A stretch of DNA of 64,000 bases, taken from the NCBI RefSeq assembly GCF_029227855.1, contig NZ_CP074356.1; one strand, given 5' to 3'. This DNA is from Escherichia coli (GTDB taxonomy: Bacteria; Pseudomonadota; Gammaproteobacteria; Enterobacterales; Enterobacteriaceae). Positions 28,501 through 31,500 of the stretch are shown in pieces. The number at the start of each line of letters is the position of its first letter. Position 1 is the first letter of the stretch. The position numbers were made by a program.

Positions 28501-31500
28501 GTGCTTTGTGCGGGCTATCAGGCGTTTTATTCTTACTCCGCACCGCATATGCGGGTGATGCGTGATCTGATAAAGCAGCATCGTTCTCCCATGGAGCTGA
28601 TGACGATGCTGCGGTGACGTGCGCTTAAACGGGCTGCCCCTGATGCGACATCCGCGTCGCCAGCGGCAGCCAGCACAGCACGATCAACAATCCCATTAAG
28701 GTCATCAACAACCCCAGGCTGCCCTGACCGGTTTGCGGCAACATCGCAGAGAGCGACGCCAGCACGCCGGAACCAATGTTTTGCAGACCGCCGACCAGCG
28801 CGCCAGCCGTGCCCGCCAGGAAGGGGAACGGCTCCATCGCGCCGCTGGTCGCCAGCGGAAACAGCATCCCGGCACCGAAAAAGAACAGCGCGGCGGGAAC
28901 GAGCAGCGTCCAGACATTCATCACGCCAAACCAGTCGGGGATCCACATCAGCAAGCCAGCCAGCAGGCAGCAGATAACCGACTGCCACATTAACGTGGAG
29001 AAGCGTTTATTGGGACGTCCGGCAAACCATGCGCCAAAAAACGCTGCCGGAATCGGCAGAATAAACAAAATACTGACCGTCATACTGCTCAGCCCTAACA
29101 CCGCGCCCATCAGCACGCCGGAGCAGGCTTCAAAGGCGGCAATCCCGGCCAGACCGCCAATCAGCATCAGCAAATAACAGTTAAAACCGCTGTTACCGAA
29201 AAGCGTTTTATAACTGGTAAGCAGGCGCGTGCGCGGTGCATCGACCGGACGCGTTTCCGGCATCCAGCGGGCCATACTGAAGGTCACACCAGCACAAAGA
29301 ACCAACAAAAAGAGATAACAGGCGCGCCAGTTCCACATCGTATCCAGCAGACCGCCGATTAGCGGTGCGAGCAACGGACTGACGAGAATCCCCATGTTTA
29401 ACAGGCTGTTAGCATGGCGCAACTGTGTCCGTTCATATAAATCTCGCGGCAAAGTACGCGCCATTACGCCGCCAACGCCGGTGCCCATCCCCTGCATCGC
29501 GCTGGCGGCAATCAACACCGTCAAACTGGAGGTCGTGACCGCGACCAGCGTTGCCAGCATAAAAATGGACATTCCGACGAGGATCACCGGTCGGCGGCCC
29601 ACGCGGTCGGAAATCGGGCCATAAAACAGCTGTGAGACACCGTAAGTCAGCAGATAAGCGCCCATTACGCTCTGCACCGCCCCTTCACGGACGTTGAGAT
29701 CGCGCGCCATATCGGCAATAGCTGGAATATAAATGGTTTGCGCCATCTGACCGACGGCCACGAGTAATACCAACATCAATAACAAATTGACGTTTCTTTG
29801 CCTTTTCATTATCACGGATGCTTTTATAAAAATAATTAGAATAAGTCACTACGCATTCCCATAAATGCGGGAGAGGAATCTATCACATTGATGAATGTTA
29901 GCCAGATATACGCCAGGAATGGGGAATTGTTTAGCGGCAGAATATGTAAACAAAAGCGGCAATAAATGTTGCCGGGAGGGATTACGTGCGAACTGTAACC
30001 CTCTCCCCAAAGGGGCGAGGGGGAAACCACCGTTCCCTTTCAGAAAATGAGCTAAACATTGCACGGGACGGTCCCCTCGCCCCTTTGGGGAGAGGGCTAG
30101 GGTGAGGGGCACAGGCAGCGCAGGTGCAAACATTCTGCTGGTAGAAGAAGCCCCCAACTCCAACCCGCACGCTAAATATAAAAGGGGAGCGGTTACCCGC
30201 TCCCCTTTGGTGCGACTTGAATCTGAATTACTTCAGGTATTTCAGAACAGCATCAAGCAGTTGCAGTGCTGCAACAATGAGTTTGAGGATAAGAATGGCG
30301 ATATCCACCAGGCTCATACGCGTCTCCTGTGGTTCAGGAGCACTGCCAGCTGACGTACCTTTCCGCTGCCTGTTGCCAGCTGTTGTGCACGCGGTATCTT
30401 AAGGAGAAACGTTGTGCTTGTTGACATAACACAGTGTGCTCACGCGGGGTTAAGGCGCTGACGGCACCACCCGTTTCAGCCAGGACTTAGTGCGCCGGGT
30501 AACGATGCGGCCCCCGCATAACACATTGCGTACAGTGATATTATAGAAGTTTACTGTATAAATAAACAGTAATATTTGGACAAAACGCAAACTGTGATCG
30601 ATACTCAACTATGCCCTAAATACGTCAAAATTCGTGCCGAAATTGCGCGTTCTGCGCGGAACACGTATACTTTCAGTGTTGACATAATACAGTGTGCTTT
30701 GCGGTTACCAGCCGCAGGCGGCTGATGAAACCTCGCTCCGCGGGGTTTTTTGTTATCTGCAATTCAGTACAAAACGTGATCAACCCCTCAATTTTCCCTT
30801 GCTGAAAAATTTTCCATTGTCTCCCCTGTAAAGCTGTGCTTGTATAAATATTGTTAAACACAAAACCAACAAGGTCCCCAATGACTACTTCCATGTTCAA
30901 CGCAAAACTACTACCAACTGCGCTATCCGCCGCAGTGGTCGTCGTGCGTGTGGTGGTGGTCGTCGGCAATGCGCCGTAGGGACTGGAACAACACACGATT
31001 CCAAAACCCCGCCGGCGCAAACCGGGCGGGGTTTTTCGTTTAAGCACCTCCCGGAAAGTCGGCCCAGAAGAAAAGGACTGGAGCATGGCAAGTTCGGGCA
31101 CAACATTGACGCGTAAGCGCTTTACCGGCGCAGAATTTATCGTTCATTTCCTGGAACAGCAGGGCATTAAGATTGTGACAGGCATTCCGGGCGGTTCTAT
31201 CCTGCCTGTTTACGATGCCTTAAGCCAAAGCACGCAAATCCGCCATATTCTGGCCCGTCATGAACAGGGCGCGGGCTTTATCGCTCAGGGAATGGCGCGC
31301 ACCGACGGTAAACCGGCGGTCTGTATGGCCTGTAGCGGACCGGGTGCGACTAACCTGGTGACCGCCATTGCCGATGCGCGGCTGGACTCCATCCCGCTGA
31401 TTTGCATCACCGGTCAGGTTCCCGCCTCGATGATCGGCACCGACGCCTTCCAGGAAGTGGACACCTACGGCATCTCTATCCCCATCACCAAACACAACTA

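Follow-up and report, generated by a model that had tools for sequence, protein, structure and literature searches.

BoxC repeats of Escherichia coli have been known since the 1990s. They are GC-rich and non-coding, and between roughly 1 and 26 copies are present per E. coli genome. PIT elements reportedly go back to work by Hoyne and Maher from the year 2000. Over time one and the same element was named BoxC first, PIT next and TM-ECO last, and under the latest name it has been given the consensus CCCTCNCCC-N3-6-GGGNGAGGG-N3-GGGNGAGGG (Holder et al., 2015, PMC4666352). The published catalogue lists 23 copies of TM-ECO for strain K-12 and 26 for strain SE11, and five inverted A/B pairs were noted in K-12 by the same authors (Holder et al., 2015, PMC4666352). 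The copies neither occupy a consistent position relative to genes nor are they associated with mobile elements (Holder et al., 2015, PMC4666352). No promoter or terminator activity was found for PIT/BoxC elements, which arrest polymerase in vitro; a TM-ECO oligonucleotide adopts a triplex in vitro, as judged by CD and NMR on oligonucleotides near-identical to the unit described below, NMR of a DNA oligonucleotide favoured the triplex over a quadruplex, and DMS footprinting in vivo detected no stable triplex (PMC4666352). In addition, rearrangements among strains affect TM-ECO loci more than control sites (PMC4666352).

Several other types of repeats have features in common with the sequence described here. 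REP/BIME elements are likewise short, GC-rich intergenic palindromes that alternate in orientation and are connected by characteristic linkers. REP elements stabilise upstream mRNA and are used as insertion targets by some IS elements. ERIC/IRU and RIP elements, about 100-130 bp in length, are imperfect palindromes from enterobacterial intergenic regions, and bacterial MITEs are small, non-coding elements with inverted terminal arms that exhibit presence/absence polymorphism.

In this work, a palindrome located near the SOS toxin gene tisB was analyzed in a 64-kb window of the Escherichia coli chromosome, that is the whole stretch of DNA that was studied; coordinates are window positions. The element itself is already known, this very copy is part of the published catalogue, and it is an ordinary one. 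What is added here is descriptive only and concerns a truncated partner unit, flanks that are arranged in a mosaic like that of BIMEs, and a REP element that was replaced beside the breakpoint of a tisB-istR indel.

Results

Position and structure of the palindrome

The genes around the palindrome are arranged in the order yidF, emrD (28625-29809, minus strand), ysdE, a small gene on the plus strand (29891-29965), tisB (30228-30317, minus strand), istR (30623-30751, plus strand, Rfam score 142 bits), ivbL and ilvBN. A first-pass annotation of the same DNA had described a large imperfect palindrome with two arms of about 24 bp between emrD and tisB. The repeat search confirmed this palindrome and the 24-nt core arms, and delimited the inverted-repeat arms to 29996-30022 and 30073-30099, 27 nt each, with complementarity at 26 out of 27 positions (96%). 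The arms are indeed separated from each other, but by a spacer of 50 nt and not of about 55 bp as originally proposed. Likewise, the location between emrD and tisB is correct in principle but ysdE intervenes on the emrD side, and the site is more precisely described as being bounded by the 3' end of ysdE on one side and by the tisB terminator (30181-30208, minus strand, identified by terminator scan) on the other. No specific report on ysdE or on the ysdE-tisB intergenic region was found in the literature.

A degenerate pattern derived from the arms matches only two sites in the 64 kb, both of which are the arms themselves, while none is expected on the basis of 100 shuffles. RNA folding of the palindrome region yields -81.1 kcal/mol for the plus and -77.6 kcal/mol for the minus strand as compared to about -53 and about -49 kcal/mol for shuffled sequences; this corresponds to a z value of about -7.4 on both strands, with none of 200 shuffles being equally stable. 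The same holds true for the DNA fold (-44 kcal/mol, z = -7.1), which was matched by no shuffle out of 200. Furthermore, every arm also constitutes a small hairpin by itself, CCCTCNCCCC-NNN-GGGGNGAGGG.

The tisAB terminator hairpin had initially been considered to form one structured block together with the palindrome. This view had to be abandoned, as the terminator is a separate, independent and much older structure. It is kept in Citrobacter as well as in other Escherichia lineages without BoxC at this position, and because it is conserved where the site carries no BoxC it is not part of the BoxC element. A different hairpin, GCGGCAATAAATGTTGCCG at 29956-29974, overlaps the ysdE stop codon and is kept in every Escherichia locus that was inspected. 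A T-rich run comes after it on the minus strand, so that it looks like a terminator for transcription arriving from the tisB side.

The right arm is part of an intact BoxC unit

Together with the next G block the right arm makes up a complete BoxC/PIT/TM-ECO unit on the plus strand (30074-30109). Its full sequence, CCCTCGCCCCTTTGGGGAGAGGGCTAGGGTGAGGGG, is organised as CCCTCGCCCC TTT GGGGAGAGGG CTA GGGTGAGGGG and matches the consensus exactly. In the 64 kb, an exact match to the TM-ECO consensus is found for this unit only (30074-30108, plus strand), with none expected in shuffles. When compared with TM-ECO copy #7, the commonest copy in K-12, the unit is identical at 35 of 36 positions. The hairpin contains one G.A mismatch like the published 'A mm' type, to which the unit belongs; yet its second loop is CTA, whereas TTA is usual for type A and CCG for type B. 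When the third block is laid antiparallel on the second, eight G*G, one A*A and one T*A triplets result and no others, that is the mirror symmetry and geometry of the purine-motif triplex described for the family are present in the sequence. The G-rich half of the unit (30087-30109, plus strand) also represents a formal G-quadruplex motif, GGGGAGAGGGCTAGGGTGAGGGG, and no such motif is present in the truncated left unit.

Exactly this 36-mer, the unusual CTA loop included, appears 14 times in Table S8 of Holder et al., with entries for SE11, IAI1 and E24377A included (PMC4666352). The position of the SE11 copy was checked and lies between tisB and ysdE; the intact unit has therefore already been catalogued. 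Exact consensus, intergenic location, multicopy occurrence and the conserved 5' extension that belongs to the about 56-bp BoxC are all features which the right unit has in common with BoxC/PIT/TM-ECO. The first-pass annotation had considered either a repetitive extragenic element or the relic of such an element and had recommended a search for more copies in the genome. Such copies exist in the numbers listed above for K-12 and SE11, the repetitive element is BoxC, and both parts of the earlier wording apply, the right unit being intact and the left one a relic. By megablast, a median of three and up to eight BoxC places are detectable per genome, and 12,988 of 12,990 such places reside on the chromosome and two on plasmids.

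These data bear on the idea that the palindrome is a GC-rich chance product or belongs to the tisB terminator, and is unrelated to any repeat family. One strand of the tisB terminator does resemble the arms (80% over 20 nt), but neither the observed fold energy nor the motif count is reached by any shuffle, the consensus match is exact and accompanied by conserved family flanks, and the terminator is also kept by genera without BoxC at the site. We assign this idea a probability of virtually nil, as it is refuted by the motif count, the consensus match and the near-identity to K-12 copy #7.

The left unit, the head spacer and the tails form a mosaic

For a comparison of units and flanks, 13 intergenic BoxC loci were fetched from K-12 and SE11, and 20 copies were found again in them. 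The left arm corresponds to the hairpin part, that is blocks 1 and 2, of a BoxC unit on the minus strand (29999-30021, CCCTCGCCCC TTT GGGGAGAGGG). Read on that strand, the arm CCCTCGCCCCTTTGGGGAGAGGG passes directly into TTACAGTTCGCACG (29985-29998, minus strand), the 3' tail of the family. In fixed register, this tail is identical at 11 of 13 positions (P about 1e-5) to TTAATGTTCGCAC, which follows the third block of the B-type unit at K-12 fepB-entC. Since the B-type 3' tail of the family follows directly upon its hairpin, the left arm has to be considered as a second unit in opposite orientation. The second loop and the third G block, 12 nt in total, are missing, and the left unit fits the hairpin part of the consensus and not the full TM-ECO pattern. 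This 12-nt gap was not opened by MAFFT but placed by eye, and the tail was tested by identity in fixed register. In the absence of the third block the left unit cannot form a triplex, which sets this partner unit apart from BoxC as described. Judged from its sequence, the palindrome almost certainly consists of two BoxC repeats in head-to-head arrangement, of which the right one is intact and the left one truncated.

The head spacer (30022-30073) consists largely of the 5' extensions of both units, namely ...GGTGGTTTCC of the left unit on the minus strand and GAGCTAAACATTGCACGGGACGGTC of the right unit on the plus strand (about 30049-30073). In 13 aligned A-type units, the window copy included, the 5' extension ...GCAC..(A/T)CGGTC is invariant or nearly so. 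In full, it reads ...AACAYTGCAC..CGGTC for the A-type and ...GCAC..TTTTCT for the B-type, and the ...GGTGGTTTCC of the left unit is related to the latter. A head-to-head architecture with a related spacer also occurs at lldD-trmL in K-12 and at rhaD-rhaA in SE11. Comparison with the rhaD-rhaA spacer resulted in a score of 15 as opposed to 3.3 +/- 1.6 for shuffles, not one of which was as good (0 of 2000), and the likeness to the lldD-trmL spacer is marginal, being equalled by 120 of 2000 shuffles. No similarity was apparent to the 100-nt spacer of yhjE-yhjG in SE11. The pair in the window, the same copy as that in Table S8, is inverted like those at five K-12 loci; four of these five K-12 pairs are arranged tail-to-tail, whereas the window pair is head-to-head, as is lldD-trmL.

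On the other side, the 3' tail of the right unit (30110-30136, plus strand, CACAGGCAGCGCAGGTGCAAACATTCT) is identical at 20 of 27 positions, ungapped and with P about 1e-7, to the linker of the tail-to-tail BoxC pair at K-12 fepB-entC. Tail-to-tail BoxC pairs are connected by such a linker, GAACAGCCAGCACTGGTGCGAACATTAA, with a length of about 27 nt. The remainder of the strain-specific block (30137-30152, GCTGGTAGAAGAAGCC...) contains no recognisable family motif. In the alignment of window and K-12, the two alleles begin to diverge at the left tail (29985-29998) and sequence shared between them restarts at about 30153 (CCAACCCGCACG). Because the spacer and the outer flanks bear the conserved 5' extensions and 3' tails of the family, the region from about 29985 to 30136 is one mosaic BoxC cluster that consists of a tail, a unit on the minus strand, the head spacer, a unit on the plus strand and another tail.

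Comparison with the box C, RIP and BIME consensus sequences had also been suggested at the outset. Box C matched, and REP/BIME, ERIC and the IHF site did not. Against a REP consensus of the GCCGGATG...CATCCGGC type, the block scored 6 of 34, less than the average of 8.3 for shuffled sequences. The REP-containing K-12 allele served as a positive control and scored 18 of 34, a value reached by 0 of 500 shuffles. REP holds the same site in K-12 and other Escherichia and has no sequence similarity to the BoxC block. To our knowledge, neither a RAYT-type transposase nor binding of gyrase or IHF has been described for BoxC. The 44-nt core inverted repeat of ERIC/IRU yielded 8 of 44, identical to the shuffle mean, and the IHF consensus WATCAANNNNTTR that would be expected for RIP (BIME-1 with IHF site) is absent from both strands of the spacer. 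The block therefore differs from ERIC/IRU and RIP by having neither similarity to the ERIC core nor an IHF consensus in its spacer. The flanks of BoxC units are conserved beyond the 36-nt triplex motif, and their layout resembles the mosaic organisation of BIMEs.

Strain variation and ancestry of the site

Among 5426 complete E. coli genomes, 1497 (about 28%) have the spacer, in single copy and with at least 99% identity by BLAST, and the right flank (the stretch 30137-30152) is also single copy and present in 1509 genomes. Conservation across strains, the lack of which had been named beforehand as a refutation, is therefore given for this allele; identity of at least 99% among all 1497 copies speaks for the absence of ongoing decay, yet it is equally expected from a recent common ancestry of the strains. 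The known carriers SE11, IAI1, E24377A, W, O111:H8 and O103:H2 are presumably all B1 strains.

In K-12, as in about half of the genomes, a REP of 36-40 nt takes the place of 29984-30152. The tisB loci of other species were retrieved with a degenerate tisB pattern. A REP-like element (…GGATAAGATGCGTCAGCATCGCATCCGACA…) is found at the BoxC site in K-12 (locus L002, 5644-5766) as well as in four Escherichia lineages other than E. coli (loci L007, L013, L020 and L022), and these four have no BoxC there. Since K-12 and four other Escherichia lineages share REP at this position, the BoxC allele is derived, with REP as the ancestral allele and the BoxC cluster as its later replacement.

A partial block occurs in 12 E. 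coli genomes. The one examined (NZ_AP045770.1, locus L037, about 670-720) has the same flanks and a single collapsed hairpin, CCCTCTCCC-TGAAA-GGGTGAGGG, which can also be written as TAACCCTCTCCC-TGAAA-GGGTGAGGGG and has TGAAA, the canonical B-type loop. Compared with the window allele, three of the five loop positions differ and the flanks are identical. A simple deletion in the window allele is thus an unlikely source of the collapsed hairpin, because its loop is a different one despite identical flanks. In NZ_AP045770.1 the ysdE region is diverged as well and ysdE is not annotated.

In B2 strains, ST131 for instance, and thus in about one in six complete genomes, the whole tisB-istR module is absent (window 29974-30790). 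In this allele, about 165 nt of unrelated DNA link ysdE to the promoter region of ivbL (locus L004, 2617-2790). The left breakpoint of the loss, at window position 29974 after TGCCGG, and the left edge of the BoxC block are about 10 nt apart. In total, four different alleles come together in a stretch of about 10 nt: the BoxC pair, REP, the collapsed hairpin and the loss of the tisB-istR module. As this fits the published picture of rearrangement, the site most likely is a local rearrangement hot spot.

Presence or absence at one and the same site is also what would be expected for a mobile element. The palindrome could be a MITE of about 150 bp, both arms included, that a trans-acting transposase inserted in one piece and that possibly targeted the resident REP. 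Its arms resemble terminal inverted repeats of 27 nt, head-to-head composites with a related spacer exist at other loci, and REPs are insertion targets of some IS elements. We nevertheless regard such an origin as very unlikely. A target-site duplication is found neither around the inverted repeat nor around the block, and REP is replaced by the block, not simply interrupted. None of the 5426 E. coli genomes has a second copy of the spacer. An exact 24-mer taken from the spacer had no match in 100,044 species-representative genomes, a search in which diverged copies are missed by exact matching. We know of no transposase for BoxC, and just two of the 12,990 BoxC places are on plasmids. [quoted passage not shown] The window element thus differs from bacterial MITEs in three respects: target-site duplications, a known parental IS or transposase, and near-identical full copies elsewhere are all missing.

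Discussion

Neither a terminator with a T-run nor a promoter match was detected within the block by a scan that did find the terminators of tisB and istR, and a T-run does not follow the palindrome on either strand. No Rfam family exceeded its threshold in the block. The only matches were to microRNA-precursor models, with 26-28 bits as opposed to thresholds of 65-92; these are rejected as artefacts that are expected for any long hairpin. RefSeq annotates no feature in the block.

That the palindrome is BoxC and at the same time a passive repeat prone to structure formation is, as a combined statement, highly probable. Based on the sequence and on published work on other copies, we infer a BoxC cluster that would have no dedicated gene-regulatory role and would act through structure only. 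In single-stranded or negatively supercoiled DNA its arms would be extruded as a hairpin or cruciform, and the right unit may fold into a purine-motif triplex or, alternatively, its G-rich half into a G-quadruplex. Structures of these kinds could stall polymerases and thereby lead to slippage, deletion and copy-to-copy conversion. Such structure-driven events would explain the high variability of this intergenic point among strains. RNA from transcription that continues past the tisB terminator or reads through from ysdE would contain a hairpin of about -80 kcal/mol, which would be a by-product.

The stability of that RNA hairpin, which is extreme on both strands, bears the possibility of a function at the RNA level. 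In this case, the palindrome would be a 3'-end module that replaced the ancestral REP between the convergent genes ysdE and tisB. The hairpin in read-through transcripts would block 3' exonucleases or be cut by RNase III, and it would keep ysdE transcription off the antisense tisB toxin gene. In every tisB-bearing Escherichia lineage examined the site is occupied either by REP or by BoxC, the terminator scan revealed no T-run terminator of ysdE itself on the plus strand before the block, and REP elements stabilise upstream mRNA. The replacement of REP by another structured element between convergent genes could instead mean that some hairpin is needed at this site. We consider a functional RNA module unlikely all the same: neither strand has a T-run behind the hairpin, and tisB possesses a strong terminator of its own upstream of the block. 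Moreover, earlier work detected no terminator or promoter activity of PIT/BoxC elements, and BoxC copies are not consistently placed relative to genes (PMC4666352).

With respect to the family as a whole, a more far-reaching model can be formulated, though its correctness seems unlikely to us. Instead of being isolated 36-nt motifs, BoxC elements might be modules of a BIME-like mosaic in which A and B units alternate in orientation and are joined by a specific head spacer and a specific tail linker, and whose clusters would be installed or exchanged as blocks at intergenic points used by REP. At the present site, the cluster took the place of the ancestral REP at a distance of about 10 nt from the breakpoint of the tisB-istR presence/absence polymorphism. 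If true, this would imply a shared insertion or recombination mechanism or an interchangeable function for BoxC and REP.

The site next to tisB, an SOS toxin gene, neatly illustrates how structure-prone repeats mark hypervariable intergenic points. For comparisons of tisB-istR regulation between K-12 and B1 strains it is relevant that the region downstream of tisB differs. In Citrobacter, tisB and its conserved terminator adjoin a different gene, membrane-protein-like and neither emrD nor ysdE. The tisB-istR module thus occupies different chromosomal contexts in different genera.

Three open reading frames cross the palindrome, 29849-30163 (minus strand, 104 aa), 29982-30170 (minus strand, 62 aa) and 29986-30105 (plus strand, 39 aa). 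The repeat is visible in their translations (…LSPKGRG…, …PLGRG…), and they are absent from the RefSeq annotation. All three are most likely spurious, and in genome annotation spurious reading frames that run across BoxC units should be masked.
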